Shown here: positions 14,301 through 62,357 of the stretch, one piece after another
Numbering within the stretch: position 1 is the stretch's first letter
Layout of the letters: every line of letters begins with the position of its first letter
NCBI GenBank assembly: GCA_964016885.1
Contig: OZ024742.1
Span: 115,444,001-115,508,000, forward strand
DNA length: 64,000 nucleotides
Direction of reading: 5' to 3'
From: Eledone cirrhosa
Lineage: Eukaryota
Translations under genes and position numbers: made by a program
The notes under the pieces: generated by a model
Told to the model about the DNA's origin: nothing
The model's input: the letters and a program-made list of their open reading frames with translations, nothing else
Databases searched by the model: none

Positions 14301-14465
14301 GGGACATCCTCAAGATATATGGACAGTAACAACACACTGAGATGTGAACTCTCCTCAAGCTATAGGGAATTCTCCAGTACATGTAGACACCTCTTGGCCG
14401 GACATCCCTCAAGATATATGGGCAATAACAACACCATAGGTTGATAACTCCCCTCAAGCCATAGG
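14280..14465. repeat. Diverged tandem duplication, about 100-bp unit
   Basis: acatgcagacac..ggacatcctcaagatatatgg..ctcaagctatagg repeated at about 14280 and 14379. Confidence 0.8.
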
Positions 14466-23895: not shown

Positions 23896-24026
23896 ATCCC
23901 GCCGAGGTTAACTTTTCCTTTCATCCTTACGGGGTCGATAAAATAAAGTACCAGTAATGCACTAGGTAATTGTTGGCCCTGCGCCAAAAAGTAGAAACAA
24001 TTATTATTATTATCATTATTATTATT
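23896..24026 (+). mobile_element. 5'-truncated SINE with (ATT)n tail
   Basis: Starts after gattatt; family match. Confidence 0.88.
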
Positions 24027-25768: not shown

Positions 25769-25773
25769 TTATA

Positions 25774-26237
25774 GGCGAAAGAGATAGTATGGTGGACCCG
25801 TTTGAAAGGGCTGAAGATGAGCACTTACCTCTTCGGTGATGCCCTGCTTGACTTTTTCAAATTGCATTTGAAAAAGAAAATCAAAGAAGAGAGGGAAGTG
25901 CTCTCTTCCCAGCATTTTGTTGAAAGATGGGTGAGAGAAGCAAGAATGGCCCACGTGAATAGGCCTACTCTAAGTATGTGTCTGTAAATTAAAGGTGGAA
26001 AACTGGGAGAGGGCACTTGCCCTGGTTTCAGGGTCACTGTGGCCTTTTAATGGGCTTTCTACACAAATGTCCCTCCGAAATATCCCCCCTACTGGGGAAT
26101 TTTTCATTGTTATTTTCTGTTACATACTCTGTTTTTGTTTTTTACACGCAGAAATGCCCATTTGTACTGTCATGTATTGTCCTGTACTGTCCTTAATGTC
26201 TACTTTATGTAAACCCTTGTGGTTAATTAAAAAAATC
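25774..26237 (+). mobile_element. Tx1/L1 LINE 3' fragment
   Basis: Matches 43243-43715; ends in (ATT)n. Confidence 0.9.
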
Positions 26238-26274
26238 ATTATTATTATTATTATTGGTATTTTATTATTATTAC

Positions 26275-35270: not shown

Positions 35271-35333
35271 GTTATGAGCATTTAGTTCTGCGTATTAACA
35301 TCATCATCACTATTATTATTATTATTATTATTA

Positions 35334-35702
35334 TGAAAAGGAAAATCAGAGTAGAGAGGAAGTGCTCTCTTCCCAGCATTTTGTTGAAAGATGGGTGAGA
35401 GAAGCAAGAATGGCCCGAGTGAATGGGCCTAATCTGAGTACGTATCTGTAAATAAAAGGTGGACAACTGGGAGAGGGCACTTGCCTTGGTGGTCAGGGTC
35501 ACTGTGGCCTTTTACTGGGCTTTCTCCACAAATGTCCCTCCGAAGTCTCCCCCCAATTGGGGAATTTTTCATTGTTATTTTTTTTTGTTACATCCTCTGT
35601 TTTTGTTTTTTACACGCAGAAATGCCCATTTGTACCGACCTGTATTGTCCTGCACTGTCCTTAATGTCTACTTTATGTAAACCCTTGTGATTAATAAAGA
35701 AA

Positions 35703-35704
<2 letters not shown>
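35334..35704 (+). mobile_element. Tx1/L1 LINE 3' fragment inside (ATT)n
   Basis: Matches 43338-43715; (ATT)n on both sides. Confidence 0.92.
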
Positions 35705-35732
<28 letters not shown>

Positions 35733-35735
<3 letters not shown>

Positions 35736-37551
35736 TTTGAGTCTCAGTCACTGATGTTAGTTAACTACAAAGTGTGTTGAAATGAATAGCAAGCCACTAC
35801 CTGCAGCCTCAGATATTCAGGACGTATCGGAGGGTTCTTGCTGTTCCCAGCAAGCATGCCTTTGGAAGCGTTCCAAAAAGCGTGAAGGGGCCAATTTTCT
35901 TTAACCATCCCTGGAAACTTTTTGTGATAATCCATAATGCGCCTATGACAATCGGGACCACTTTGACTTCATGGCAGTTCCAAATCCTTTTTACCTCCCA
36001 CTTTAAGTCCTGGTATCGGTTAATTTTCTCCATCTCCTTCTCTTGCACTCTTGTGTCGAATGGGCAGGCCACATCCACAATCAGGCACGATCTTTTTTCT
36101 TTGTCCACAACCACCAGGTCAGGTCTATTGTGTTCCAGTTTCTTCTCCGTCTGTATCCTAAACGCCCACAGCACCTTCACCTGATCGTTTTCTATCACCG
36201 AGTCTGGCTTATGCTCATACCACTTCTCAGACTGTGGTAAATTGTTTACTTTGAATAGGTGCCAGTGGATCACCCTGCCCATGACATCATGTCTCCAGCC
36301 ATTATAGTAAGTCTGGGTTAGGTGTTTACACTCGGATACAATGTGAGCCACAGTCTCCTCTCTCTCTCCACAGATCCCGCCCAGTGGGCTAGCCTCATCA
36401 TTGTAAAGATGGTGGTTCAACCACTTCATTTTGAGGGCCTTCTGTAGCCTTTTTAAGGTCTCCTCTTTTCAACCAGTTCCATGTCTGTGGATCTCTAAAT
36501 TCAGTTTTCTCAAAGAAGGTACAATGAAGGGATTTTTCCTGAAGGCTGCTCTTTCTCCTTGATGTTATTTCCTCCTTGGACATTCCCTGGCCTATTTTGC
36601 CCTCCTTCAGTACAGTTTTGAGCATTGGCTCCTTACTATCAGTCACGTATTTGTGTAGGTTGTTTTTCTCCATCTGAACACAGTCCTCTATGCTGATAAG
36701 ACCGCTTCCACCCTCAGATCTCCTTAAGTAGAGTCTATCGACATCATTCCGCTTGTGGTACATGTTGTAGATAGTCAATAGCTTCCTAGTCTTCCTATCG
36801 ATTTCTTTTTGTTCAGCAACATTCCATCTCAGAATTCCCGCACTGTACATAATAATAGACACAGCTCGGGAATTTACTGCAGTTATGACATTCCTACTGT
36901 TCAGATGTGATTTTAATACGCTACTTACTCTCCGTATGTATTCAGTTCTTATCAATTCCTTCATTTTTTTGTTCTTGATTTCATCAGCCTCCAGAACGCC
37001 CAAATACTTGTATCCTTCTTCAGAGTCAATTTCCTTTATCATCTCACCTGTTGGTACCTGGATTCCGTTACTTCTGCTCAGCTTACCCCTCTTCATCACA
37101 GTGACTCCACACTTACTAATACCAAATTGCATACATATATCATTGTTTAAAATACGGACAGAGTCAACAAGCACATCCAAATCCTACTCACTCTTCCCGA
37201 AGAGCTTAAGATCGTCCATGAAGAGGAGGTGATTGATGGTAAACCCTCCCTTTCCCAACCTGTATCCTGCTCTCACTTTTCGCAGTACACTGGTCAGGGG
37301 CATCAGGGCAAGGACAAACGACAGAGGGGACAGGCTATTTCCCTGGAAGTTACCTCTCTTGATCTTCACGCTTCCCAAGGATTCTCCAGTTGATGTTAAC
37401 TCTGTTTCCCAGGACTTCATACTTTTGCCCAACAACTGTCTGATGTTATCTGCCACCTTAAAGATCTCCAGGACTTTGGTGATCCAAGAATGAGGCACCA
37501 TGTCAAATGCCTTTTTGTAGTCTATCCATCCCATGGCAAGACCGGTGTGTC
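35733..37551 (-). mobile_element. R4/Dong element, 5'-truncated (family 1)
   Basis: WIDYKKAFD, FMDD, RHD, RPDLVVVD..EK motifs in ORFs 37184..37534, 36398..37180, 35809..36429. Confidence 0.93.
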
Positions 37552-37603
37552 AACTGGTCTTGCCATAGGATGGATAGACTACAAAAAGGCATTATTATTA
37601 TTA

Positions 37604-37787
37604 CTAGCATAGTTATGTCCCTTTACGATCTGAGTTCAAATCCCGCCGAGGTTGACTTTGTCTTTCATCCTTACGGGGTCGATAAAATAAAGTACCAGTA
37701 ATGCACTGGGTAATTGCTGGCCTTGTGCCTAAAGTAGAAACAATTATTATTACTATTATTATTGTTATTATTATTAATATTATTATT
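37604..37787 (+). mobile_element. 5'-truncated SINE between (ATT)n tracts
   Basis: Family match. Confidence 0.9.
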
Positions 37788-39564
37788 GGCAACCTACGTA
37801 GGAAATCGTAACATCGTGAGCTCCGCAAAAGTTTGTTGTTTTCGTTTTTTTTTTAATTTACATTTTTTGGGAAATGTTTGTAATTAACTATTTTGGAGGT
37901 CACACAATTTGCTTTCGGAAAAGGAAACTAAAAAAGATTGGGGTCTTGAGCCAAAAATTTAAACTTGTATAATTATCAAACTGAAAAAAAATTTCTTTGA
38001 AAGAAATAATGTACGTTCACAGTCACACTTTCGTCACAAACTAACACCTCACACCAACACCACCATTGTAAATATTACTGCGTTTGCCAACACTAAAGAT
38101 ATAAGCAGTAGCAATTTAAATTTGTCTCATGCAGACATTCATTTCCCGCCATTACCAATGACAGCAGGTGTTGAAGCCGCCACCCCCACCACCACCAGAG
38201 CGACAACAGACACAAAAGAAAAAAATATATTATCTCGTAACATCGAAATGGATTCACCCAGAATGGACCCTTCCACACCGAACACCACTGACGCCACCAC
38301 CACCACAACTGAAACTAAAAATAAACGATAAAAATAACGATAACAACAAAAGCAACAACAACAATGAGAATAAGAAAACCACCCTGTATTTTGCCAGAGT
38401 AGCATACAAGTGCGAAGCAATCCAGGTAACTCAGGATGAATTAGATGCAGCCAAGAGAATGGTAAAGAAAGATGGGTACAGGGTCAGCCTCACCCTCCAC
38501 CTAATAAAATGGAGCATCGGCGCCTATGCACAGTGTCTTATCGGACAATTAACATAAAATCGCGCTGAGTGGAACGGGCATCCGATTCCCAAATCAAAAA
38601 AAGCTTTGGGACATGTGTGGGCAAAAAAAAACCTCACATCAGACGTGGGCAGAAATATGGAACAGTGGACGTGTTCTTTGGAACAGCACAGGAGGCCAGA
38701 GTACACTCCATGGCCCCATTAAGAAGTGACGACTTCACACTCGTCCCAAGCTATTGTGGCCAGAGACTCGTGAATATCAGCGTGACCCACGTTCCACCGG
38801 CCATCGAAATTCCCTCGCTAATGGCTGCCATCCTAGCCGGCTCGAGGCCAACACAAAGATAATCGAAATAGCGAAAGAAAAGCAGGAGAAATGGTCCGGA
38901 TCTGGGATGGAGCTCCTGATCCAAGCAGACAAAAAAAGCATTGCGGAGATCCCAGAAGTAATAGACCTCACTGACGGCAGTCACCTCACCGTAATCGTCG
39001 AGGGTAGAACGCCTAGGTGTGTCGTTTGGGGTGAAGAAACCCACCTAAGGGCTTTCTGCCCTCAGGCTAAAAGGTTGAGGCCACCTCTCTTACCCACCTC
39101 AGTGATTCAACCATCAACACCACCAGCAGCAGAAATGGCAGCAACAACAGAAGCAAATGTAACAACAACAACAGCAGCAACAGTAGCAAAACCAACACCA
39201 CCACCACCCAACGCGCCATAGCCAGCACCAAAGCCTACACCATCCACCACGCCACAACCAAAATCAACGCATGTGGAAGATTTCCGACTCCCCGACGTAT
39301 CGCAACTGGAGACAGATTGTGACGACGAGGAGTGGGAAACGGTATCAGGGAAAAAGAAAAAAAAAAAAAAAGAAACCAAAAACTAAAACAATCCTCTTCC
39401 TTCCCCTGCACAAACACCAACACCATCACCATCATTAACCCCAACACCACCATCACCAATACCACACAAGTCACCAAAAAGCGAAACAGAATCAAACCCA
39501 CAACAAACGCAAACAAAACAAAACAACCAAAACAATACACACTACACAGCATTAACTTTGAACA

Positions 39565-39749
39565 GGTGAATTGTCAGTATCGGTAGAGGGTTGGACGCCA
39601 TGCTTTCTAGCATAGTTACGTCCCTTTACATTCTGAGTTCAAATCCCGCCGAGGTTAACTTTGCCTTTCATCCTTACGGGGTCGATAAAATAAAGTACCA
39701 GTAATGTACTGGGTAATTGCTGGCCTTGTGCCTAAAGTAGAAACAATTA
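39565..39749 (+). mobile_element. SINE inserted in the Tx1 inter-ORF region, 14-bp TSD
   Basis: TSD attaactttgaaca (39551-39564) / attaaatttgaaca (39746-39759). Confidence 0.92.
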
Positions 39750-40046
39750 AATTTGAACAACAACCAATTATGACACTACATCTAACACAACACCAGCATC
39801 ACAGAAAAAGACTACACAGCAACCCAAAAGTTCAAACCACCGCCACACATACAAATCCCTCGCATCACACAGAACACACACACATTCCCCAAAGACATCG
39901 GAGACTTCCGAAAAGTACTCTCCGGGAGAATTTATAAGGACATCCTTCCGAACAGGCCACAAGCAGTGAAAAGGATGGATAAACCATCCTTCCTCTACGA
40001 GAAGTAAGGTAAGTGGTCTTTTCCATCTTTTCCACTCCATTTCAAC

Positions 40047-43000
40047 ATGATCTCACTCAGAATAGGCAGCATAAATGCCCGTGGCTTGGGGTCGTCATGG
40101 AAGCATGGCCACCTGCTCAACGACCTCAGGTCACTAAACATAGATGTAGTGGCCATCAGCGAGACCAGAATCTCCGAAGCACGGGCCTTCTCACCGATCT
40201 TCGGCGGCTACGATGTGTACGCATCTCCCAGACGTCCGGGATCGGGAGAGCAGTTGCTGTGCTTTTTCGGAGAGGTTTGAATCTCGCCCGACGGGCCATC
40301 TTCCTGTACCCAGTAGGTAAGTTGGTGGTGCTGAACGTGACCGGCGGAGACGGGCAAGATTTCAGGCTAGTGGCCGTCTATGCCCCGACAGGAGCAGGGC
40401 GGTCTGATTTCTGCCGGCTTCTGGAGACCTTTCTTGGAACATCCCGCTCTTTAGTGTTAGTGTGCAACTGGAACGGGATCTTAGATGCACGCCGGTATGT
40501 GTGGGATTAGCGGATAGAGGGGGAGGGTGCAAGAGCCTCAACGACCTGTTCAGGCGTTTTGAACTGTCTGACAGTACCGATTGGATTCCCCAAATGTGCC
40601 AATGTGGACCTGGATAAACCGCATAGGGTCATCCAGATCATATCTAGATAGAGTATTTTGTAGGGAAATAGATAGGTCTAGCATACGCGGTCCACAATTC
40701 AAGATAGGCAGCTACACGGACCACAAATTTGTGATATGTGTGCTTGACTTAGATAGGCTTCATAGAAGAGGACTCGGCTACTAGAAGCTAAACGCGTCCT
40801 TTCCAGCGCGCAAAGCCTGCAGAGACAGGATTAGCCAACTAGTTAAGTGGGCGTTGACGGGGGCCATCGTCAACAACATGTGGTGATTTTGTGATGAAAA
40901 ATGCGATTAGAATAGAGTCCATTAGGTTTAGTATGGCTTTAGCAATCGAGAAAGATAGAGTAGAGGGAGAAATAGTTAGAAAATTAGACGAGGCGCTTAG
41001 CAAAGGCATAGCGACCAACGTACATGCGGCGAAATTGGCCCTTGACCAATTCACCAATGCAAAGCACGAAGGCTGCGTGTCAGATCTAGGTTATGTGCTC
41101 TCAGACACGAGGGGATGAAAGCCGTTGAATGGGCACGAGTGGCGGAGGCGCGTCGTGGCAACAAAACCACGATCCGGTCTTTGGTGGACCACGACGGGCG
41201 CATGCTACTCGATCCCGGGCAAATGTGTGAAGCTTTTCAGCGACACTTCGCTCAGCTGTTCGGGGGCAGCGGCTGGTCAGGTCGAGGGATGGACTTTAGT
41301 ATCTACCTCGACGGACTGACGCGGTTCTCGGCCACTGAGGCGGATTGTTGCGGAAAGCCGATATCAGCCGCTGAAATACGGGAGGCAAAGGCTTGCTGCA
41401 CAAGTTGTAAATCGCCTGGTTTGGATGGTCTGCCATATGAACTTTACGTACAGATGCCAGAATTGTTCGGAGGTCTCTTGGCGGACGTTACTGCAACTGG
41501 CAACAGAATGGGAGAATTTCCATCTCTGTCAGACGAAGAGCGGTGGCGCTGCTTAGAAAGGATCTGAACAAGTGGGATAACATAGATAATTTCATACGCA
41601 AAACTCTGCTAAACAGAGTTCAATATTTTGGCCAAGGTGCTAGCGAAGAGGTTGGCGATTGTCGTTGGTGGTGGGTGGGAGAGGCGCAGACATGCGACAT
41701 TCCAACAGATCCATACACGACAACCTTCACCTCGTGCGATATGTCATAGAGAGGTTAGCTAGGGAACCTGGCTCGGGTAGGACTTTGATCAATTTAGATC
41801 AGTCGAAAGCTTTCGATAGGGTCGACCATCGTTACCTAGCGGCAGTCCTGAGGGCGGTTGGTTTTGGGCCCGTCTTCAGAGGCTGGAGCGCTGCCATGCA
41901 CATCGACATCTGCTCTGTGGTGAGAGTGAACGGTGACCTTTCAAAACCGTTAAACATCATGCGCTCGGTCGGCCAAGGATGTCGCCTATCGTCCCTCTTG
42001 GTCGTATTGACTATTAAGCCATTACTGCACAGATTGGAGACGTTGAGGTGGGTCCCACGCGAACTAGGATGCGGAAGATCCGTGTCAGCATATGCGCACG
42101 ATGTAACCATAGTGGTGTCGAACGCGAAACACATCGATGCAATCGGCACTACACTAAGAGAATACGAAGCGGTGACAGGAGCAATGATCAACCAGGAAAC
42201 GTCGGTGGGCCTGCAGCTCGGCACCTGGAGAGGCAGGTCCATGCCGTCCAACAACGTCGTCGGGCGCTGGACAGACGGACCGGTTAAATTGCTCGGGGCT
42301 GGTTCGGTCCGGACCTCCAGACGGACAAAAACTGGGACGAGGTGACGAGCAGGATGGCTTCTCTCACCCAGATATGGGCGGAGAGGAGCTATCCCTGAAA
42401 GTTCGCGCGGAGGTGGCTAACGCATACATCGCGTCTGTCATCTACCACCGCCTGACCGTCGTACCTTGTCCTAAGCCCCATCTGACTGCGCTGGAGCGCT
42501 TGCTCTTTCGCTTTTTGTGGAAGGGACGCGCTTCTATGGGCAGGGGGTCCATCTGCTGTCAACACCCGCTACGTGGAGGGCTGAGCATGCCGTGCCTGAT
42601 GATGCTCAGACACGCGCTCAGGCTACGACATCTTCATCTCTTCCTCGACGGTGATCAGGTGTGGTCGCCGTTTGCTAGACGCGTCTTTCCCCAGCTCGTC
42701 TCCTTGACGGAGTTGCAGTCCTGGGTCAAGCGAGGCCCGAGAGGGAGCGCTAGGAGACTGGAATGAATTCAGGCGCTCACAGCCCTCGACCGATCGGGCA
42801 ATGTGATCGATTGTGACTCCACTTTGGCGTTCAATAGAGGATACGTGGAGGGGAAGATGGACGACGTGCTTGGGGAAACTCTAGGCGTCGACGAAAATCA
42901 ACTAGCCAATCTCTTCGGAAGAACTTTCGGGTCGGGGCCAATGGACAACTTCCAGAAATTCCTGGCCTGGCAGTGCTACCGAGGAGCTTTGCCAGTTCGG

Positions 43001-43455
43001 GATAAACTCTACAGGCATGGAGGTGCCGTCAGCCGGGCATGTCCGAGATTCGCACAGGACGAAGAAGCCGTCCTGCACGCACTCGTCCAGTCTCCGAGTA
43101 TTGCTGACTTGTGGGTTTATGTTGAACACCTGCTGTCGCGTGTTGGACGGATCCAGCTATCAGCTGAGTCCATCGTGAGGATTGCCCCGCCCTCTTGCTT
43201 TAGCGGGGAAGGGCAGGCAGTTTATATCTTTCTGGTGGCCATGGCGAAAGAGATAGTATGGTGGACACGTTTGAAAGGGCTGAAGACGAGCACTTACCTC
43301 TTCGGTGATGCCCTGATTAACTTTTTCAAGTTTCATTTGAAAAGGAAAATCAGGGAGAGAGGGAAGTGCTCTCTTCCCAGCATGTTGTTGAAAGATGGGT
43401 GTGAGAGGCAAGTATGGCCCGAGTGAATGGGCCTACTCTGAGTATGTGTCTGTAA
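40047..43455 (+). pseudogene. LINE ORF2 (APE-RT-zinc finger), frameshifted
   Basis: Consecutive ORFs 40047, 40013, 40581, 40891, 41115, 41659, 42374, 42803 carry the motifs in the expected order. Confidence 0.9.
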
Positions 43456-43732
43456 ATTAAATGTGAAAAACTGGGAGAGAGCACTTGCCCTGGTGGTCAG
43501 GGTCGCTGTGCCTTTTTAATGGGCTTTCTCCACGAAGGCTTTCTCCCTGCGAAGTCTCCCCCCCCCCTATTGGGGAATTGTTTCATTGTTCTATTATTAC
43601 ATCCTCTGTTTCTTGTTTTCTTACACGCAGTAATGACCTTTTGTACCGTCCTGTATTGTCCTGTACTGTCCTTAATGTCTACATTGTGTAAATCCTTGTC
43701 GTTAATAAAAAAAGCAGAAACAATTATTATTA

Positions 43733-43854
43733 TTGACTTTGCCTTTCATCCTTACGTGGTCGATAAAATAAAGTACCAGTAATACACTGGGTCTTTGCTG
43801 GCCTTGTGCCTAAAGTAGAATCAATTATTATTATTATTATTATTATTGTTGTTA
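43733..43854 (+). mobile_element. 5'-truncated SINE in the Tx1 tail
   Basis: Family match, (ATT)n on both sides. Confidence 0.88.
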
Positions 43855-45203
43855 TTCCTTGAATCTCAGTCATTGATGTTGGTTAACTGGAAAGTCCGTT
43901 GGAATGAATATCAAGCCACTACCTGCAGCCTCAGATATTCAAGACGTATCGGAGGGTTCTTGCTGTTCCAAGCAAGCATGCCTTTTGAAGCATTCCAAAA
44001 AGCGTGAAGGGGCCGATTTTCTTTAACCATCCCTAGAAACTTTTGGAGATAGTCCCCAGTGCGCCTATGACAATCGGGATCACTTTGACTTGATAGCAGT
44101 TCCAAATCCTTTTCACCTCCCACTTTAGGTCCTGGTATCGGTTAATTTTCTCCCTCTCCTTCTCTTGCACTCTCGTCTCGAAAGGGCAGGCCACATCCAC
44201 AATCAGACACGATCTTTTTTCTCTGTCCACAACCACAAGGTCAGGTCTATTGTGTTCCAGTTTTTTGTCCGTCTGTATCCTAAAATCCCACAGCACCTTC
44301 ACCTGATTGTTCTCCATCACCGCCTCTGGCCTATGCTCATACCATTTCTCAGAATGTGGTAAATTGTTTACTTTTCACAGGTGCCAGTGGATCACCCTGC
44401 CCATCACATCGTGTCTCCAGCCCTTATAGTGGGTCTGGGCTAGGAGTTTACACTCGGACACAATGTGAGCCACAGTCTCCTCTCTCTCTCCACAGATCCT
44501 GCACAGTGGGCTAGCCTCCTCCTTGTAAATATGGTGCTTCAACCACTTCGTTTTGAGGGCCTGCTCCTGCGCAGCCATTAGCATTCCTTCTGTAGCCTTT
44601 TTGAGGTCTCTTCTTCTCAACCAGTTCCATGTCTGTGGATCTCTAAATTCAGTTTTCTCAAAGAAGGTGCTATGAAGGGATTTTCCTTTAAGGCTGCTCT
44701 TCCTCCTTGATGTTATTTCCTCCTTGGTCATCCCCTGGCCTACTGTCCCCTCCTTCAGTACAGTTCTGAGCATTGGCTCCTTACTATAGGTCACGTATTT
44801 GTATAGGTTGTTTTTCTCCATCTGAACACAGTCCTCTATGCTGATAAGACCTCTTCCACCCTCAGACCTCCTTAGGTAGAGTCTATCGACATCACTCCTC
44901 TTGTGGAACATGTTATAGATATTCAATAGCTTCCTAGTCTTCCTATCCATTTCTTTTTGTTCAGCAACATTCCATCTCAGAATTCCCGCACTGTACCTAA
45001 TAATAGACACAGCTCGGGAATTTACTGCGCTTATGGCATTTCTGCTGTTCAGATGTGACTTCAATACGCTCCTTATTCTCCGAATGTATTCAGTTCTTAA
45101 CAATTCCTTCATTGTTTTGTTCTTTATGCCATCAGCCTCCAGAACGCCCAAATACTTGTATCCTTCCTCAGAGTCAATTTCCTTTATCATCTCACCTGTT
45201 GGT
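43855..45203 (-). mobile_element. R4/Dong element, 5'-truncated (family 1)
   Basis: YKYLG, GGRGL, CRICG..HIVSEC, RHD, RPD motifs; inserted in the (TAA)n tail of the adjacent element. Confidence 0.93.
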
Positions 45204-45367
45204 ATTATTATTATTATTATTTGCATTTATCTTGCTTTATGTTTATACGAGTTATCACCAAGTCACAACCAGTGACCTCAAGAGACAACAAGGTCCGCCA
45301 TGTTCAAGAAAGAACACACATATTCACACATGCATCCTTAGTGTTTAGACTTGTGATGTACTTATAT

Positions 45368-48300
45368 TTACAGGATCTTCCTTAGTATATGGGCAGTTCC
45401 CATTAGTACTATCTTTTGTATTTCTCCTATACGCGGGTTTCCTGGGATTTGCGATAAGTAGTCGTTAGACCCCTTAGGTATCATTCCCAGAGCGCCTACA
45501 ACCACTGGTATTGTTTTAGTTCTCAATTTCCACATTTTTCCAATTTCTATCTCCAGGTCCTTATACTTGCTCAATTTTTCAAATGTTTTTATAGATACAT
45601 TCTTGTCTATTGGAACAGACATATCAATTAGCAGGCATACCCTCCTTTGAAAGTCCTTCAATATTATATCAGGTCTATTTGCATCTATTTTTCGGTCTGT
45701 TTGGATGCTAAAGTTCCACAAGATTGAGATGTGATCTTTTTCAAGTATGGGAGGTGGTTGATGCTCCCACCAATTCTTTTGATGGGGCAGGTCAAAATGC
45801 TTGCACATTATCCAATGTATGTATTGTGCAGCTCTGTCATGCCTGTTTAGGTATTCGGTTGGAGCTATAGGACTGCACATTGAAATTATATGGTCAATGG
45901 TCTCTGGTTGTTTTTTGCATACACGGCATAATGGGCTGCACCCATTTTTTATTATGTTGGCTTGGTAATTTTTTGTTGGCAGACACTGATCTTGTGCGGA
46001 TATAATCAGTCCTTCAGTCTCCGATTTCAGTCCAGAGGATGCCAACCACTGATGGGTTAAAGTTTTGTCAACATCAGGATTGTTAGCTCGCTCTGGGTAT
46101 TTTCCATACAGAGGCTTTTCTTGCCATTTCTTAGCCAGTTTCTGTAGCAGTTCTTTCTTTGCAGTTACTTTTACCTGCTTTGCTTTTTCTGTGTTTTCCA
46201 TTTCAGCAGTAAATGGGACTTCTGAAATTTGTAGTCCATTACTGTATCTTTGTGCATCTTTTGTAATGGAATATGATCTTTTGGTGCTTTCGTGTTTCAA
46301 AACGAGTTTGATCATCCAATCATGTGATTCCCTTAGATATGTGGATAATCCAATTGTTGCAGTTTTCAACGCAATGTCTAACTGGATTAACCCACGTCCT
46401 CCTTCTTTCCTAGGGAGATATATTCTATCTATGTCTGCCTTAGGGTGATGCATTCTGTGCATGGTTAAGAATTTTCGGATTTTTGTATCGAGCCTACGGA
46501 TCTCTGTGCTTGACCAGTTGATGACATTGTAACTGTAGGTTACTACTGGTATGGCAAGCGTGTTTATGGCATCGATCCTATTCCTTGCATTCAATTCCGT
46601 TCTTAAGATTGCTCTGACTCTGCGGTAACATTCCTTCCTTATCCTTTCCCTCATTGTCGAGTGCTTGATTCCGTCTCCTTCACAAACACCTAGATATTTG
46701 TAAGTTTGTTCTTGATCAAGCTCTCTTATCACGTTCCCCCGATCAAGATTAATGTCTGAACTCTTCAGCAGCTTTCCTCTGGTGAACGTTGCTTTGGCGC
46801 ATTTATCCAGTCCAAACTCCATTTTAATGTCATCACTGAACTGCTTCACAGTGGATAATAGCCCTTGCAATTGTTCATCATTTTTTGCAAATAGTTTCAG
46901 GTCATCTATGTAGAACAGGTGATTAATGGTTTTGTCATAGACTCTATATCCATGTTTTGTTTCATTGAGCATTTTACTTAATGGTATAAGTGCGATGCAG
47001 AATAAAAGCGGTGATAAAGAGTCACCCTGAAAAATTCCACAATTAATGTTAACTTCTCCAGCTTCCAGTGATTTTGTTTCACTATTCAAAAGGAGTGTCG
47101 TTCTCCATGTCCTCATACTGAATGACAAAAACCTCCTGATAACGGGGGATATTTTGAAAATCTCTAAACATTTTTCAATCCAACTGTGTGGCAAACTATC
47201 AAATGCTTTTTTATAATCTATCCAAGCGATCGATAGATTTTTGTGTCTATTATGACAATCTTCCAGTATCATTTTGTTAACCAGAAGCTGATCCTTACAG
47301 CCATATGAGCCTCGTTTACACCCTTTCTGCTCAATGGGAAATAGGTCATTTGTTATCAGGTGGTAATATGTGTATTCAGTTAGGACTGATGTTAAAATTT
47401 TATACATTGTGGTCAAGCAGGTTATCGGTCTGTAATTTTTGGGATTGTTTGTCTCATCATTCTTCGGTAGCAGGAATGTAATGCCGTTAACTAGCCATGA
47501 TGGTATCTTTTCTGGCTCCTTAACTATTTCATTGTAAAGTTGGGCTAACAGCTCATGAGACTCTGTGAAGGCATTTATCCAAAAGTTTTGTATTTTGTCT
47601 TTTCCTGGGGATTTCCATTTGCTGGTTTTTCTTAGAGCCAAGCGCAGCTGTTCAACTATTATATTTTCCCATGTTTGTTCTTCAAGGTGAGCTGTTTCTT
47701 TCATTTGTCTGTCTATCCATGGGGCATGTATGTTATGAATTTTTTCTTCGGCCCAGATCTTTTCCCAGAATTCTTGCACTTCCTCCTTGGGTGGTATTTA
47801 TTTAGCAGTTATTGTTGACTTACCAATTTTTCTGTAGAAGTTTCTTTGGTTGTTTTTGAACATATTATTGTCCTTATAGAATCTAGATCGTTTTTCAAAG
47901 CGCCTTATACGAGCAGCTTTGGCCGACACTTTTTGCTTGATTGTTTCTATCAGCATGTCTATGTCACATGTTGATCTTATACTGTACTTTTTTTTCAATT
48001 TTCTAAGTTTAGTTTGTTTAACATGTTCACCTACTTTATAGTTTGTTAAAATTTCTATGTCAGATCGGAGAAGGTTTATTTGGCGATTGATGTTATCTTG
48101 CCAAGTAGATTTCTTGTGGGAATTCCTTTGTTTTTTCATCTTCACTCCACATAAGTGAGTGGTGACTTTAGCCGATGCATAATAGAGATGATTTAAGTCA
48201 GTAATGCTTAGTTTGTTTGTGATGATAATGTTTTTGAGAATTATGTTAGTCTTGTGTATTATCTTTTGGTTCTGTTTGGAGTTCTGGATCTTAGGGAGGG

Positions 48301-49012
48301 TGTCTCGTTCCCCCATGTCAGATTCTTTCATTTTCATCCATTCGATCATAATTTCATCCTTCAAGTTGGCAAGTTCATTTTCATTCATTTCTTTATCATT
48401 TACGATCTCATTATTTTCATTTGGAGTTTCATCCTGAGCATGCACTCCCTCCACTTTTTTGCTCCTTTCTTTAATTTGTTCTGTTGCCAGTGATTCCGCC
48501 CCAACTCTGGGATTCGAAGTGTTACAGTTTACCTCGTTTTCACTGACACATGCTTCATTTTCCCTTCGCTGACTTTGTGCTACTAGCTTGATCTGATCAA
48601 TTTCTATATCAGTTAGTAACTTTTTTCTTACAATATTTCTTCGTATATTGGCTAGTTTGTTACTGTCAATATAGCCTCTGTTTTCGGGATGTTTCTTTTT
48701 CCAGTTGATATATGTTTGCTCTGTATTCGATGTATTTGATGGGTAGTACATGGCAGTGTAGAAAGCCTCAAGGACTTCTTTATTATCTTCCCTTGAACAT
48801 TTTTCTCTCTTTTTCTTTGGATTTCTTGGTGGTGAGCATGGAGGGCCAACAGTAGGAGTATTCCGGTTATGGGAGGTCTCCAGCTCCGAAGTGATGGGAA
48901 GGTTTGAACCATTAACTGATTTTTCGACCCCAGTCTGGTTCCTCTCTGAGGGACGCGGCCCTTTTTTACCCGGGTGACGGCCGATCCGGTATGAGATTTC
49001 ATCATTAGACAT
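45368..49012 (-). pseudogene. Single RT plus restriction-like endonuclease ORF (1214 codons) with one internal TAA at 47798-47800
   Basis: ORFs 47798..49012 and 45368..47779 are in the same frame; KSPGKD, YRPITC, IDYKKAFD, GIFQGDSLSP, YIDD, CRVC..HIISMC, RHD, RPD..EK. Confidence 0.93.
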
Positions 49013-49077
49013 CTACTTTATTTTGTCGCGTTTTATCCTTATCCGCCAAGGGGTAATCTTTTCGTGTTACCACTTCT

Positions 49078-49166
49078 AGAACGAGTGTCGACCAAGACTA
49101 GAGGGGTCGTTCTCCCCTAGAGACATGGCTATTCCCCGCCGGCCGCCATCCCGGTATTTCTTGGTC
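49078..49166 (-). ncRNA. Candidate HDV-like ribozyme at Dong 5' end
   Basis: P1 GACCAA/UUGGUC, P2 AGAAC/GUUCU, P3 GAC/GUC, L3 CCCUCUA in the nested pseudoknot order; no P4; J4/2 region atypical (GACACUC). Confidence 0.45.
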
Positions 49167-49529
49167 ACGGGGTTTTCTTTTTGTTGTTTTTTTTAAATTG
49201 TTATTATCATGAGTGGTTCCTTAATGTGAGCATTGCGTGGCTTAAGAATGAAATTATTCATAATTGTCTCCACTCCAGGCCAGCAATCACCCAGTGCATT
49301 ACAATAATATAATATACTTTTTGTTGTAGTTGGCTGTTATTGCTGCTGGTTATGTCGGTGGTGGTGCCGGGGCTTTTTATATTGTTGGTGAGGAAGGGGT
49401 GAGCCAGCAGTCCCATAATTGTTGCTGTAGACGTTTGTCCGTGGCAAGGTCACCAAGTCAATCTATTTATATCTTTTGCTAGCCTCTCTCTTGTCTAGTG
49501 CTACCACCACCTTCCCTTTTCTCTCTCAA

Positions 49530-49530
<1 letters not shown>

Positions 49531-49580
<50 letters not shown>

Positions 49581-49601
49581 TTATTTATTATTATTATTAT
49601 T
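49531..49601. repeat. (ATT)n microsatellite
   Basis: Seen directly; forms the tail of the adjacent Dong element. Confidence 0.95.
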
Positions 49602-52600
49602 CTTTGAGTCTCAGTCATTGATGTTAACTGGAAAGTTTGTTGAAATGAATATCAAGCCACTAACTTCAGCTTCAGGTGTTCAGGACGTATCGGATAGGTA
49701 TTGCTGTTCCCAGCAAGCCTGCCTTTTTAAGTGTTTCAAAAAGCGGGGCGTGACCAATTTTCTTTAACCATCCTTGGAGAATCTTTCGGATAGTACCTAA
49801 TGCGCCTATGACAATCGGGACCACTTTGACTTCATGGCAGTTCCAAATCCTGTTTACCTCCCAAATTATGTCCTGCTATCGGTTAATTTTCTCCCTCTCC
49901 TTCTATTGCACTCTCGTGTCGAATGGGCAGGCTACATCCACAATCAGGCACGATGTTTTCCTTGTCCAAAACCACCCGGTCAGGTCTATTGTATTACAGT
50001 TTCTTGTCCTTCTATATCCTAAAATCTCACAGCACCTTCACCTATACTTATACCACTTCTCAGATTGGGGTAAATTGTTTACTTTGCATATGTCCCAGTG
50101 GATCACCCTGCCCATGACATCATGTCTCCAGCCTTTATAATGAATCAGGCCTAGGTGTTTACACTCGGATGCAACGTGAGCCACAGTCTCATCACTTTCT
50201 CCACAGATCTTACACAGTGGGCTACTCCTTGTAAATATGTTGCTTCACCCAATTCGTTTTGAGGGCCTGCTCTTGCGCAGCCATTATCATTCCTTCTGTA
50301 GCATGTGTAAGGTGTTTTCGTTTCAAAGAGTTCCATGTATGTGGATCTCTAAATTCCGTTTTCTCAAAGAAGGTACTATGAAGTGATTTCATGAAGGTTG
50401 CTCTTCCTCCTTGTTGTTATTTCCTCCTTGGAAAATCTCCTGGTCTTTTGTTCCCTCCTTCAGTACAATTCTAAGCATTGGCTCCTTACTACCGGTCACG
50501 TATTTGTGTAGGTTTTTTTTCCTCCATCTGAATACAGTCCTCTATGATGGAAAGACCTCATCCACCTTCAGATCTCCTTAAGTAGAGTCTATCGACATCA
50601 CTCCTCTTGTGGAACATGTTGTAGATAGTCAATAGCTTCCTAGACTTCCTATCCATTATTTTTGTTCAGCAACATTCCATCTCAGAATTCCCGCACTGTA
50701 CCTAATAATAGACACAGCTCGGGAATTTACTGCACTTATGGCATTCCTACTGTTCAGATGTGACTTTAATACGCTCCTTACTCACCGAATGTTTTCAAAT
50801 CTTATCAATTCCTTCATTTTGTTGTTCTTGATGTCATCAGCCTCCAGAATACTCAAATACTTGTAACTTCTTCAGTGTCAATTTCCTTTATCATCTAACC
50901 TCTTGCTACCTGGATTCCGTTACTTCTGCTCAATTTACCCCTCTTCATCACAGTGACTCCACACTTACTAATACAAATTGAATACATATATCGTTGCTGA
51001 AAATACGGACTGTGTCAACAAGTACATCCAATTCGTTCTCACTCTTTCCAAATAGCTTAATATCGTCCATGAAGAGGAGATGATTGATGGTAAGCTCTCC
51101 CTTTCCTAACTTGTATCCTGCTCTCACTTTTCGCAGTATAATGGTCAGAGGCATCAGGGCAAGGACAAACAACAGAGGGACAGACTATCTCCCTGGAAGA
51201 TACCTCTCTCGTTCTTCACGCCTCCCAAGGATTCTCCAGCTGATGTTACCCCTGTTTTCCAGGACTTCATATTTTTGCTCAACAACTGTCTGATGTTATC
51301 TGCCACCTTGAAGATCTCTAGGCTTTTGGCGATCCAAGAATGAGGCATCATGTCAAATGCCTTTGTGTAATCTATCCATCCCATGGCAAGACCAGTGTGT
51401 CTTCTCTTGCAATTCCTCATTACCATATTATCAATAAGTAACTGGTCCTTTGTATCACGGGACTTCTTTCGGCATATTTTCTGTTCGTCCAGTAACAAGT
51501 TGTTTGTGTGGAGGTGATGGTAGATTTCCTCAGACACAATGCTTGTCAACAGTTTCCACATTACGGACAGACAGTGATAGGTCTATAGTTGGTAACATCA
51601 TTACCTTTGATTCGGTCTTTCATTACCAGAACTGTGGTACCTTTTGTCAACCACTCTGGTACCTCACCTGACATCAAGCAGTCATTGAACATGGTTGTCA
51701 GTTTCGGGTGGAGGGATGTTATGTTTTTTAATCCAATACCCCTGCACACCATCTGGGACAGGTGATTTCCAGTTGGTTAGTTTTTTGGCCTGCCCCTTAA
51801 GAGTTTCAACTGTGATACTCAAATCAGTGTGTTGGTGTGCCTGTTCACAAATCTCCTTTTGTACTGTCCCAATCCACACTGCCTGGTCATTATGTTTAAC
51901 ATCCTGCTCCCATATTCCTCTCCAGAATGTCTTAGTTTGTTCCGCCTCAGGAATCAAGTCGTTGCCTCTTTCTTTCCCTTCAAGCTGTCCAAACAAAACC
52001 GCCGGGTTGTTGTCAAACATGCGGTTCTGTCTATACTGACTGACTCTGATCTCGTATCGCCTAATTTTTGCAATCTTTGCTACAATGCGTTGCTTCAGTT
52101 CCTCTTTGATAATATTTAGCCTTTTCCTGCTAGTTTTGTACTTTATTTCTAGTTTATATTTAGTGTCTATATTTGATAGTGTCCCATTCAGTATGGACTC
52201 AAGCTTTCCAATGTCATTTCTCATTTCCCTGATTTCACCATTGAGTCGTTTTTTCCACCAAGGTTCAGATCTTTCTTGTTTGTTGTTTTGTCTCGCTTTT
52301 ATGCCAAGCAATTTCCTCACCACATTTGCTATTGCTTTGAGGATATTGTTGCACAGGTGAAGGTTCCTCGCCTCAAGTTATGGGATGACTTTGTTTACCT
52401 TAGCTGTTGTTTCTTTTAACTGTTTCCTGTCTACAAATCTTAGGTTCATAGGTTTCCCACTATCATTGTTTATTTCATCTACCACTAAGTTTAGGATATC
52501 AACCAACTCTTTTCCTAGCCCGTCAGCATTCATCTCCGCTATGGCCGTATCTCTGTTCCAGGTATCATTTATTTCAGCATTGAGATCATTGTCTGTTTGG

Positions 52601-53554
52601 GTTGGTTACTCCGTTCCCTCAACTACTGGCTCGTTTGCACGGCATACTCAAGTCTCTATTTCCAACCTAATCGCTGTGCTCAGTTCCTTCAGTTCCAGCT
52701 CGCTTATCCACCCGTTAGTTCTCTTAACCCAAGCCTGCCCGGCCAATTTTTGTCCATCTAATTTATATAAACCAATCTCGTTCCAGATGTTATGCATCCG
52801 TTTCCTATAGCCGTTTACCTTGGGGTTACTCTTCAGGTAACATTGCATAACAGTTCTATTCAATTATTTCGTCCAGTTGGTTCTGGTCCCTTTGCTTCTT
52901 CTTCTTCCTCCGACACCAGCAGTATTTGATTGACAACCAGGTCCCTGCTGCTGAGCCAGGGAGCACCTGTTGGGTGAGAGTCTGTCACATTACATTCCAG
53001 TTTCCGCTTCACCGTTATTCGAACAGTTTAGTTTCGACATTTAAACATTCTTATCGAGGATTGGTGAATGTATGTTTACATAACCATAACCATAACTCTC
53101 TGTCTGTTTGTTTTTCTTTTCTTTTTTTTCTCTTCTTTACGTTTTCGTTGCTGCTGTGCTGTTTTGATTTTGATTTTTGTTTTTTTGATTTTTTGACCGG
53201 GTCATCAAATCAGGCTATTATATATTTTAATGCCTTCCTCATTTAGGGGGAATACGATGCCTGTCTTAGCAGGATGTAGTGGGAGAGAATAGCGGTGGTA
53301 GAGATAATGAGGCAGTTGTGGTGGTGGTGCTGTGCTAGTAGTACTTAGCAGGAAGTAGTGGGAGAGAATAGCGGCGGTAGCGATAATGAGGCAGTGGTGG
53401 TGGTGATGTGATCGTAGTACTGTAGTGATGGTGTTGAAGTTGATGTAGAAATAGAAGTTGAGGTAACTTGACAATAGTTTTTGGTGGTGGCGGTGGTGGT
53501 GTTGGTGGTGAACTTATTTGCCTCTCTGTCCACTTAGCCATTTTTCTCTTTTTC
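49600..53554 (-). mobile_element. Full-length but decayed R4/Dong element (family 1)
   Basis: N-terminal NRTVMQCY..GYRKRMHNIW, PWWKKRL, NYRPIT, WIDYTKAFD, FMDD; many frameshifts. 5' boundary uncertain; about 80-bp tandem duplication at 53266-53420. Confidence 0.88.
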
Positions 53555-53579
53555 GTTATTATTATTATTATTTGGCAGT

Positions 53580-54222
53580 GGGTGGATTGGCAGTATCGGT
53601 GGAGGGTCAGACGCCAAGCTTTCTAGCATAGTTACGCCCCTTTACGATCTGAGTTCAAATCCCGCCGAGGTTGACTTTGCCTTTCATCCTTACGGGTTCG
53701 ATAAAATAAAGTACCAGTAATGCACTGGGTAATTGCTGGCCTTGTGCCTAAAGTAGAAACAATTATTATTATTTGGCAGTAGCCGTAGAGGGTCGGACGC
53801 CATGCTTTTCAGCATAGTTACGTTCCTTTACAATCTGAGTTCAAATCCCGCCGAGGTTGACTTTGCCTTTGATCCTTACGGGGTTGATAAATCAAAGTAA
53901 CATTAATGCACTGGTAAATGCTGGCTTTGTGCCTAAAGTTGAAACAATTATTATTATTATTGCAAATAAATAAATAATAAAGAAATCATTAATTTTGTTG
54001 TTGTAGTGGTGGATTGGCAGTATCGGGAGAGGGTTCTGCACTATGCTTTGACGCATAGAGTTACGATCCTTGCCATTCTGATTTGAAATCCCGCCGAGGT
54101 TAACTTTGCCTTTCATCCTTACGGGTTCGATAAAATTAAGTACCAGTAATACACTGGGATAATTGCTGGTCTTGTGCCAAAATTAGTAACAATTATTATT
54201 GTTGTTGTTGTTATTATTATTA
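53580..54222 (+). mobile_element. Three SINE copies in tandem (53580-53771, 53772-53960, 54007-54222)
   Basis: Each has a B box and (ATT)n tail; the first is flanked by duplicated attattattatttggcagt. Confidence 0.92.
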
Positions 54223-54224
54223 TC

Positions 54225-55170
54225 ATTTATGAGCTCGTGAATTTGTCATTATTCTATTGTCAAACTGTGCTTTTCATATGCAATTTTATTATTGATTTGG
54301 AGATATAGTGCTCGGCTTACGTGTGAAGTGGTGCTCTTCTCTCCACATGTGTGCACTTTTGGGGCAAAATTGATGTTTTTCGCAAACACGCACCCAACAC
54401 TTTGAAAAAAATAACGAAACCAAACATTCAGACGCCAAAATTACGTACACAAAATGGAAGAGCGACATGTTTAATCAAGAAGACAGCCTTTGAGCAGCAG
54501 TGACAAAACCATATGTGGGAAACATTTAACTAGCAGCAGCCAAGCAAACATTTTGGTTTCCACATCCAGCACCACTCTTACTAAAACCAACAAAAATACA
54601 AACGCTACGACAAACGCCAACGCAACTTATACCAAGATAATCAACACCAGTATCAGCAGCAGATACAACAACGGCAACAGTAACTGCTGTAGAAGCAACA
54701 ACAACAATAACCCACATTTATCCCGTGCAGTGACTACTTATGAAATAGAATTCACACCATTGCCAATAATATATACCAATGTGAATGCTGCCATCACCAA
54801 CCCCGACTACACAGTCGACTACACAGACCACTAATTCGCGATCTGTGCGGGCGAAGTAAATAGACTTTATAGACAGAGACATGGCTACTGTAAGCTAAAC
54901 TCGTCGCTAAGGAAAAGCAAAGCTTACAGAAAATGGATTAGTGAATTAGTTATGAGGGTGTTGATTTAAGGCAGTCGTGAACGAAAAATGCTGGTTCTCC
55001 CCCAAAAAAGCGATTAGAATAAAGTCAATTCGGTTTAGTAAGGCTTTAACTATAGAGAAGAATGGAGCAGGTGGAGAATTAGTTAGAAAATTAGACGAGA
55101 CATTTAGTAAAAGCATAACATTTAAGTGATTGCGGAAAGGTTGGCTCTCGAACAATTCTTCCACACAAAG
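54225..55170 (+). mobile_element. Decayed, internally deleted Tx1/L1 copy
   Basis: 54810-55170 aligns with 40705-41065; preceded by a Thr/Asn-rich ORF1-like stretch and (ATT)n. Confidence 0.7.
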
Positions 55171-60878: not shown

Positions 60879-62265
60879 TGTTTTAGCTGAGGAAAATGGT
60901 TAAAGGAAAATGAAGATGATTGGTCACCATTTCTTGCAGCTGTGTGAGTACGCTAAAACTACGCACGACAAAGGTAGTTACATTCTGTGACGTGTCACAT
61001 CTATCATTTAAGTAACCTAGAAGGGAATTTGTCTTCAGACTGAAACAAGCCAGAATAAATACCGTGAGATATCCTGAGCGATATTATAACAAAACCATGA
61101 CCCCACGAATTCATTCTGGTGCTTTATTTCATCAATTAATATCATAGCCTAGGAAAATACACTTCGATGTATTTGAACACATTTTGCAGATAGACATAGC
61201 ACCTCACCCCAAGAGTGTCCTACTTCCTAATGATTTTCCCAAGTTGTTACGTATTTAATTTATGATAAGTATTTGTTCCTCCAGCAAAGCTACCGCTTTC
61301 AATATATTGATTATGGATAGCCCTGATTATCTAATGTGTTCTTGCAGGAGTTTCCCCTCTAGGATAAAAACAGATGAGCTCCATCAATTATTTCTAAAAT
61401 GTAGGAGGTGATACATCTTCACACAACCTGCTAGAAATCGTGATTCAATATCTATCAACACTCACACTGCTATGTTAGAGAATGAAGAGCACGCTGACAA
61501 CATGGAATTAAATACTCCATATTTGAGGTAAATGGATAGTGTACATGGATGGAATAACGTTAAGCCATGAATATAGAAATTCCTTTACATTTTTATCCCG
61601 AGGTTAGCACTGATCAAGCCCGTACACGTATAGTTTCGGACCTTATGGTGTAGAACTGAGTAGATATGATTGAATGGAAGGAATTGTGCGTCTTCTTAGA
61701 GGTTCCACTATCCAGTTGATACATTGATTTATTTATATACTGTTATATAATGTTTTTGTTTCGCCCCTGGATAGGAATGGTTGCATGATCATGTAATTAA
61801 ACGCATTCAATGTCGAAGGTTTAAAGGTAATTGGAACTACATTACATAATGTACCGTGTTATTGATTTAAGACGTTAGTGGGTGCTTTAGCTACTTCAAC
61901 TTCTATTTCTGTCTGGTCGAGATATTATATGAACAAAAATAACAATGATTGAGTGAGCAGGCCTATTAATTTTAAGAAAGATTAAAGAACTAGGATTAAA
62001 AGCATATTAAATGAAATAAAATAAATATTCGCCAAGGGAATTCTACATGATAGCGTATGTCATGTAGACTTAACCAATCACATCCACTCCAAAATAGATT
62101 CCAACGTCGCACCTGGCATATATAATGATGTGGTCCTTGATGAACAGCGTCTAAATATAAAGACTGGGTGTTCATGTCTGAAAGTAAATTTCTTCAGGTC
62201 TTATGAAGAAAAACCGGCCCAAGTCAATACAACAATAATAAAACAATGATAATAATAATAACAAC

Positions 62266-62267
<2 letters not shown>

Positions 62268-62301
<34 letters not shown>

Positions 62302-62343
62302 TGTTTCTACTTTAGGCACAAGGCCAGCAATTACCCAGTGCAA
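62268..62343 (-). mobile_element. SINE 3' fragment with (ATT)n tail
   Basis: tgcactgggtaattgctggccttgtgcctaaagtagaaacaattatt on the minus strand. Confidence 0.85.
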
Positions 62344-62357
62344 ATAATAATAATAAT

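Follow-up and report, generated by a model that had tools for sequence, protein, structure and literature searches.

The stretch of Eledone cirrhosa DNA analyzed here (64,000 nucleotides [nt]; assembly GCA_964016885.1, contig OZ024742.1, positions 115,444,001 to 115,508,000; hereafter, the window) contains, between 35.3 and 55.2 kb, a nest of retroelements of three kinds: a long interspersed element (LINE) of Tx1 type, LINEs of Dong type that carry a restriction-like endonuclease (RLE), and a short interspersed element (SINE). TxA denotes the Tx1-type family of the window, DongA and DongB its two RLE families, and SINE the short element. An earlier note on this DNA had proposed a chain of these elements joined by ATT repeats, and both self-comparison and a read-out of the junctions reproduce it in the same order: Tx 3' fragment (+), DongA (-), SINE (+), full-length Tx (+), SINE (+), DongA (-), DongB (-), DongA (-), three SINEs (+), and an old Tx (+), with ATT tracts at the junctions. 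The pieces of the nest, and of two smaller groups elsewhere in the window, are as follows.

35311 to 35334, + strand: (ATT)8 array, 5' junction of a truncated TxA copy
35335 to 35704, + strand: TxA 3' fragment (Tx1-type LINE), 5'-truncated, ending in the hairpin and AATAAAGAAATC; 95% identical to other copies
35705 to 35734, + strand: (ATT)10 array, tail-to-tail junction of TxA and DongA
35735 to 37551, - strand: DongA, 5'-truncated, with the end of the reverse transcriptase (RT), CCHC, and PD..D nuclease
37552 to 37590, + strand: inverted DongA piece of 39 bp at the DongA 5' junction, a copy of neighboring DongA sequence
37603 to 37742, + strand: SINE, 5'-truncated, flanked by ATT tracts (37591 to 37602 and 37743 to 37787); 98 to 99% identical to other copies
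37788 to 43715, + strand: TxA, full length but decayed, with remains of open reading frame 1 (ORF1), apurinic-type (APE) endonuclease, RT, C-terminal zinc knuckle, and 3' hairpin
39565 to 39749, + strand: SINE within TxA ORF1, lacking an array and flanked by a 13-bp duplication that begins ATTAA; missed by the earlier note
43716 to 43722: SINE-end stub of 7 nt; missed by the earlier note
43735 to 43823, + strand: SINE, 5'-truncated, preceded by ATT (43723 to 43734)
43824 to 43847, + strand: (ATT)8 array
43857 to 45202, - strand: DongA of a young subfamily, 5'-truncated; 98% identical to other copies
45203 to 45221, + strand: ATT array between the DongA 5' junction and the DongB 3' end
45222 to 49530, - strand: DongB, near full length, with RVT_1; one stop at about 47798 splits the ORF; 99.1 to 99.6% identical to other copies
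49531 to 49601, + strand: ATT array of about 23 units
49602 to 53555, - strand: older DongA copy, truncated in the 5' untranslated region (UTR); 87 to 90% identical to other copies
53581 to 53761, + strand: SINE, first of three, with A/B-box head and 3' hairpin, preceded by ATT (53556 to 53572); 98% identical to other copies
53773 to 53946, + strand: SINE, second of three
Near 53975 to 53989: Tx-end stub; missed by the earlier note
54008 to 54191, + strand: SINE, third of three
54228 to 55170, + strand: old Tx-type fragment, preceded by ATT (54192 to 54227); ORF2 part about 75% identical to TxA
23896 to 26273: second cluster, comprising SINE (+, 23896 to 23999), ATT, DongA (-, 24030 to 25769), TxA (+, 25774 to 26237), and ATT
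62249 to 64000, - strand: inverted pair, with SINE 3' stub (62301 to 62342) and TxA (62358 to 64000), in AAT tracts on the + strand

Across the whole window, element ends adjoin 16 of the 19 ATT arrays of at least 9 nt, and the orientation of the elements relative to these arrays is uniform, with SINE in sense 12 times, Tx in sense 7 times, Dong in antisense 9 times, and no exceptions. The cluster at 23.9 to 26.3 kb, said to follow the same logic, shows the same polarity, but its Dong/TxA junction at about 25770 lacks an ATT array. The inverted Tx1 and SINE pair reported at 62.3 kb is present. The three Dongs between 43.9 and 53.6 kb represent two lineages whose proteins are only 35 to 37% identical. 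Pieces of the nest range from 75% to 99.6% in identity to their nearest copies elsewhere, indicating that the nest grew by serial insertion, and on this measure DongB at 45222 to 49530 is its youngest piece. The inverted 39-bp DongA piece at the 5' truncation point (37552 to 37590) resembles a product of fold-back or twin priming. An Rfam search of the window gave no match.

The Tx-type elements can be placed in the L1 group of LINEs by their protein sequences. Intact ORF2s of sister families carry the Pfam domains Exo_endo_phos, RVT_1, and zf-RVT, corresponding to an N-terminal APE endonuclease, an RT, and a C-terminal zinc knuckle; the best PDB match of a sister ORF2 is L1 ORF2p (E = 1.8e-57), and the window TxA is 68% identical to one such family, TxC, over the part compared. 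The closest named relatives of the LINE protein come from Argonauta and Octopus, and no named Tx1, Dong, or R4 protein was returned by the homologue searches, the cluster look-up, or Atlas; the clade names Tx1 and Dong are assigned here from architecture and target, not from phylogeny. TxC ORF1 contains a CX2CX4HX4C motif, recognized by eye and without a Pfam family match, whereas the TxA copies inspected have only a degenerate form of this knuckle. Two ORFs, the first with a CCHC knuckle, are a feature of the Tx1 clade.

The insertion target of this LINE is evident at both of its ends. A TxA 5'-end query carrying no ATT returned 29 other loci, which, like those of the other targeted searches, are its best-scoring matches; in 27 of them, 3 to 25 pure ATT units stand immediately upstream of the first base of the element; in the remaining two, the start is damaged and ATT is still in front. 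At the 3' end, ATT comes next in 29 of 29 other loci, although in 8 of these there are merely one or two pure units. In TxC, whose copies are 99 to 100% identical, ATT comes next in 25 of 25 loci, and 19 of the 20 copies fetched are full length, all 19 with at least four ATT units per side (mode, six). Two truncated TxA copies (L019 and L025) show, by eye, a duplication beginning with ATT, and both TxA and TxC exceed at both ends the published level of >20% target-bearing flanks (PMC4494074). The repeat at both ends, together with target-site duplications, indicates that the repeat is a target for Tx, Dong, and SINE alike. ATT is thus the insertion target of the Tx1-type LINE and not its tail, the requirement is strict for the LINEs, and the earlier suggestion that the LINE is ATT-directed holds; ATT as a mere tail is rejected on the 5' flanks and the duplications. 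One further ATT-flanked family, TxB (L161:6310-10000, L165, L018, L030, L305, L311, and L335), combines a distinct 5' end and ORF1 region with an ORF2 91% identical to that of TxA, a possible ORF1 swap. At L157:2000-6000, a TxA copy is interrupted by a different RLE-type LINE (666-amino-acid ORF, RT plus zinc knuckle).

The Dong elements occupy the same repeat in the opposite orientation. DongB consists of a single ORF of 1,216 amino acids (L347 and L350) with RT, CCHC (CX2CX8HX4C), and RPD..D motifs; its PDB matches are R2 proteins only, and Pfam finds no APE domain in it. This is the architecture of Dong (single ORF, RT, C-terminal CCHC, PD-(D/E)xK nuclease, no APE), and there was no named reference for Bombyx Dong, R4, or Rex6 among the 120 listed homologues or the cluster members read. 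AAT comes next on the element's own strand at 58 of 58 Dong 3' ends and at 22 of 23 visible 5' junctions, and AAT flanks six of six extended DongB copies on both sides, so that insertion into TAA repeats, a trait of Dong/R4, is shared by the Dongs of the window type. DongA and DongB have their first ~150 bp in common (5' ends of L096, L108, L122, L124, L125, L126, L147, L348, and L350), which hints at an exchange of 5' ends or at conservation of an RNA element. An HDV-like ribozyme (hepatitis delta virus type) at the Dong 5' end gave neither an Rfam match nor a convincing match to a crude descriptor, both of which are insensitive tests. The DongB 5' UTR carries a fixed piece of about 45 bp from the SINE 3' end, in Dong sense and between ATTAT motifs (window 49243 to 49290, - strand), at the same place in L096, L108, L109, L123, L126, L133, and L350; this piece seems to descend from a SINE that inserted long ago into a master copy of Dong.

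The short element has no ORF, and its head bears motifs resembling the A and B boxes; ARAGORN called no tRNA (transfer RNA) in it. By its boxes, duplications, and LINE-like tail, it is classed as a tRNA-derived SINE. Among 29 young copies, 23 have a duplication of 11 to 21 bp (median, 17) without an extra ATT unit; the duplications start with ATTAT in 20 cases and GTTAT in 3, the latter with GTTAT on both sides and no AUU copied in. Immediately before the duplication stands a C or T in 22 of 23 copies, versus a background of 59% (P = 9e-5); the SINE itself ends in A. In random sequence, 280 SINE matches include 107 intact 3' ends, of which 86 are followed by ATTAT (the background for RTTAT is 0.39% per position) and only 7 by at least four ATT units. 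The SINE therefore targets ATTAT loosely, mostly outside arrays.

Tx families and SINE subfamilies have a common 3' end, consisting of a stem of 3 to 4 bp, a 5-nt loop, and 16 to 17 nt to the junction. When this hairpin was scored on 12 natural tails, 87.5% of cells were paired (19 to 56% in slid controls), three of the four pairs had changes on both sides, and the covariation score was reached by 0 of 500 shuffles, a statistic that ignores the relatedness of the tails. The SINE loop, CTTGT, is that of TxA and TxC; the loop is CTAGT in TxD and TTTAT in TxE, two sister families with other targets. The shared hairpin, the common target, and the similar duplication lengths make an ATT-type Tx the likely partner of the SINE, in agreement with the earlier assignment of the SINE to Tx1. 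Dong is rejected as its partner, since it lies on the opposite strand and has no common tail. A central conserved domain would place the SINE with MetaSINE, CORE-SINE, or the octopus SINEs OK, OR1, and OR2, and the SINE may resemble the Meta domain; the motifs were absent from the two supplementary files of PMC4824008 searched. At L079:1699-2176, at least 11 tandem copies of the first 45 bp of the SINE lie upstream of a full SINE. A longer SINE subfamily (L175, L192, L213, and L241) has about 30 bp extra before the hairpin and an end, AGAAACC, nearer to the Tx ends.

The polarity of the window extends to the genome as a whole. The random sample comprised 80 stretches of 10 kb (800 kb) from 21 contigs, weighted by lower-bound lengths, and was mapped with a library including three copies from the sample itself, giving a few self-matches. 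Tx-like sequence covers 6.7% of it, SINE 2.8%, DongB 1.3%, and DongA 0.7%, the families together amounting to about 11%. An element end adjoins 35 of the 63 ATT arrays of at least 12 nt. The earlier note had asked for comparison with other microsatellites, and in eight control types, occupancy is 0 to 6%: 4 of 67 arrays for GTT, 1 of 54 for ATG, 4 of 114 for GGT, 1 of 17 for AGT, 0 of 8 for TGTC, 3 of 319 for AC, 30 of 1,590 for AT, and 6 of 105 for AG. TATC arrays are also enriched (10 of 35 occupied), every one by a Tx-type element in sense. At ATT arrays of the sample, SINE is in sense 26 times and antisense once, Tx in sense 9 times and never antisense, and Dong antisense 10 times and in sense once. 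In 225 targeted loci, which are the best-scoring matches of each search and of which a few overlap, the counts are 159 sense and 0 antisense for Tx, 55 and 0 for SINE, and 1 sense and 198 antisense for Dong. Elements at AT arrays show no polarity. Among ATT arrays of at least 21 nt in random sequence, 16 of 23 adjoin Tx, SINE, or Dong. The nest is real, and its strand-polarity rule is valid genome-wide.

These observations lead to the reading that the nest results from serial insertions at (ATT)n/(AAT)n by a Tx1-type LINE, by a SINE likely borrowing the enzymes of that LINE's group, and by two Dong-like LINEs likely cutting the opposite strand, to which we assign a probability of roughly 0.8. 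Its directly observed parts are the flanks, the orientation, the target-site duplications, the shared 3' hairpin, and the differing ages. Mechanistically, the nick made by the Tx APE endonuclease would fall on the AAT strand, at 5'-ATAAT/R (Y|ATTAT on the top strand), and reverse transcription would be primed on RNA held by the 4-bp stem, with its CUUGU loop 16 to 17 nt from the RNA end. A second nick about 17 to 18 nt away would duplicate about six ATT units. The restriction-like nuclease of Dong would nick the ATT strand, and because the two enzymes would then cut opposite strands, their orientations would be fixed as opposites in any pure array. Each LINE insertion would split one array into two, and the Tx 3' end (...C|ATTATT) would remake the preferred site, allowing nests and tandem arrays to grow with no need of an ATT tail. 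The SINE would use the Tx target signature loosely and land mostly outside arrays. The array seems to be renewed symmetrically, most likely through array splitting together with target-site duplication.

Several points weigh against this reading. No empty allele was seen: four contig sets compared with the nest contained short repeat pieces only, with no empty-allele bridge among the 15 joints listed, and a choice of already long arrays would look identical. A duplication is unreadable within a pure array, so the 18-bp figure for the LINEs is deduced from the six-unit mode and the tandem spacers. One SINE and one Dong in the random set and one Dong in the targeted set are the exceptions to the orientation rule. 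Duplications were called in only 48 of the 107 random SINEs (8 to 20 in mismatched controls), and 6 of the 29 young SINEs have no duplication call. The hairpin comprises just 3 to 4 pairs, was read from the very sequences on which it was scored, and has its outer pair unpaired in 6 of 12 rows. The tail of TxG, an older family flanked by TATC, also carries CTTGT, so the loop alone cannot single out the ATT families.

Sister LINEs found in the random sample, with ORF2s 60 to 77% identical to that of TxA and with intact young copies, sit in (ATT)n, as TxC does, or in other repeats. TxE has (TATC)n next in 25 of 25 loci, from a query that carried 12 nt of the repeat, and four of four full-length copies have TATC at the 5' end too; TxD has TGTC-type repeats next in 18 of 18 readable loci, with 7 tandem loci left out. 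A quick family tree (Shimodaira-Hasegawa-like approximate likelihood ratio test [SH-aLRT], no bootstrap), containing only unnamed relatives and leaving out two short rows, unites the TATC and TGTC families (SH-aLRT, 100) and joins their clade to TxC (91), a topology suggestive of a switch of target away from ATT. The endonuclease segment aligned with TFFSAPHHTYS of L1 has the sequence WTNRIGSSRSY in the two ATT families; its counterpart is WSNNSGQSRSY in TxD and, in TxE, WKNHSGQSRSY. This loop would influence target choice in APE domains; the TxD and TxE loops are nearly alike despite their different targets. AATAAA lies directly before the array in all Tx families. Full-length TxD (period of about 5.6 kb) and TxC (about 5.8 kb) also form head-to-tail tandem arrays of copies 99 to 100% identical with short target-repeat spacers, which are of six ATT units in TxC (G000:C3:358.73-358.78 Mb [L276-L281], C2:402.74 Mb, and C1:423.39 Mb).

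We tentatively propose, at well below even odds, that a young L1-group radiation changed target, leaving ATT for TATC and TGTC, by way of a small number of residues in an endonuclease beta-hairpin loop (TNRIGSS versus SNNSGQS and KNHSGQS), helped by read-through RNA bearing the target repeat; the SINE would follow only the ATT branch, via the shared hairpin, and the R2-group Dong would take the other strand, so that two unrelated endonuclease types divide one microsatellite by strand. A possibility of similar standing is that targeting depends mainly on RNA-DNA pairing: with AAUAAA 6 to 8 nt before the array, the LINE RNA would end inside the flanking repeat, its AUU units would anneal to the nicked AAT strand, and the endonuclease would supply only a loose T/R nick. 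The position of AATAAA in all Tx families, the need of the LINEs for at least four units where the SINE needs only ATTAT, and the different repeats occupied by families with such similar ORF2s are all as pairing would have them. It does not yield the preference for C or T before the duplication, which is not derivable from a SINE RNA ending in A, nor the three copies with GTTAT on both sides; against it, too, is the loop of the endonuclease, which is not the same in ATT as in non-ATT families. Pairing can act together with the endonuclease-based explanation.

The earlier note had further supposed that Tx1 and SINE add ATT tails and so create or extend the arrays that Dong requires, which we regard as improbable. 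The occupied long arrays noted above, the length and purity of the junction arrays, and the 18 of 58 Dong 3' ends lying tail-to-tail with a Tx or SINE 3' end would all follow from it. The SINE, however, lays down no array: the tail is absent, the 23 resolved copies have no unit beyond the duplication, and what follows is mostly a lone ATTAT. The few pure units at 8 of 29 TxA 3' ends also run counter to tail addition, as does locus L340, with exactly four units per side inside a GTT/ATT tract. Nor does Dong depend on arrays of Tx or SINE, since its commonest neighbor beyond the 3' array is a same-sense Dong, present in 27 of 58 loci; 14 loci have Tx there, 4 a SINE, 12 no recognizable element, and a single locus an opposed Dong. 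Of the self-extending site, the extension survives, and splitting plus duplication fits it better than arrays made by tails. Convergent sense/antisense transcription, also proposed in the earlier note, would be a hypothetical consequence.

Less probable again is that the SINE is moved by a LINE other than Tx, be it Dong, RTE, or an unseen family, and that its likeness to the Tx tail is due to chance. The shared tail is short, about 25 nt, the comparison of LINE tails was not genome-wide, and the sample contains ORFs that, from their motifs, we take to be RTE-like; yet the SINE faces opposite to Dong and equals Tx in loop, in the 16-nt spacing to the junction, and in target, with a similar duplication length. 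Passive accumulation or an assembly artifact, through random insertion, survival, or mis-joining at microsatellites, is very improbable, and passive accumulation is rejected on the control repeats. Although unequal crossing-over or mis-assembly could inflate the near-identical TxD and TxC tandem arrays, elements seldom occupy AT and AC arrays, which are far more numerous, and show no polarity at those of AT, and the range of identities among the nest pieces shows that they are not collapsed duplicates.

Elsewhere in the window, decayed RT ORFs at 7907 to 10070 (- strand), 11377 to 12418, and 13653 to 14444, with a weak GIY-YIG match (E = 8.5e-4, below the Pfam cutoff), are consistent with Penelope-like elements.

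The mechanism by which APE-type elements target microsatellites is poorly understood, according to one review (PMC3812793). A single genome here holds intact, near-identical young sister families with different targets (ATT for TxC, TGTC for TxD, and TATC for TxE), so swaps of the loop and of the 3' end can separate recognition by the endonuclease from RNA-DNA pairing. The hairpin common to SINE and LINE supplies a likely partner for an abundant octopod SINE. That ATT arrays are largely occupied by Tx, SINE, and Dong would explain local pile-ups of transposable elements, would lower the reliability of ATT markers in genomes of this kind, and may hide new Dong insertions from short-read callers.

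Microsatellite-specific Tx1 elements are known from fish, as Kibi in (TC)n and Koshi in (TTC)n, and from crocodilians, in (TTCC)n/(TTTC)n (PMC4494074; PMC3812793). As described there, they are, like Tx, L1-group LINEs with APE and RT that have the repeat at both ends; the (ATT)n, (TATC)n, and (TGTC)n targets are unlisted for those families in these accounts, and the present case differs further in its octopod-like mollusc host and in the several targets within one young radiation. The likeness to Kibi and Koshi is one of strategy. Dong (R4 clade) of Bombyx, DongAg, and DongBg, among them a snail element, are specific for TAA repeats (PMC3812793; PMC3774820). Dong of the Bombyx type, like the Dongs described here, has a single ORF with RT, CCHC, and PD..D nuclease and has TAA/AAT at both ends on its own sense strand; unlike the Dongs known from those accounts, two lineages here share one target and their 5' ends, and the HDV-like 5' ribozyme of Bombyx Dong has no counterpart detectable by the insensitive searches above.

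In crocodilians, movement of SINEU by Tx1-Mar was inferred from a shared target (PMC4494074), and that system also shows, as here, a looser target in some SINE families and tandem copies one duplication apart. SINEU has a Mariner target and a head derived from small nuclear RNA, in contrast to the tRNA-type boxes and the 3' hairpin covarying with a LINE in the present SINE. The stringent-type pair ZmSINE2 with LINE1-1_ZM (PMC3747384) likewise joins a SINE to an L1-group LINE through a short 3' hairpin with compensatory changes, and Table 1 of that review of SINE/LINE pairs contains no Tx1 partner and no cephalopod pair. Octopus genomes contain many Dong-R4 and L1-Tx1 elements, with recent activity in both groups; the text consulted in those reports mentions neither target sites nor orientation nor a SINE partner (PMC13282606; PMC8967140; PMC9115989). 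A literature search found no Tx1 described as specific for ATT, TATC, or TGTC and no cephalopod SINE with a Tx1 tail; Repbase and Dfam, outside that search, may already annotate them. The strategies are thus known, and what is new is the targets, the likely Tx1-type partner of the SINE, and the presence of two unrelated endonuclease types on opposite strands of one repeat.

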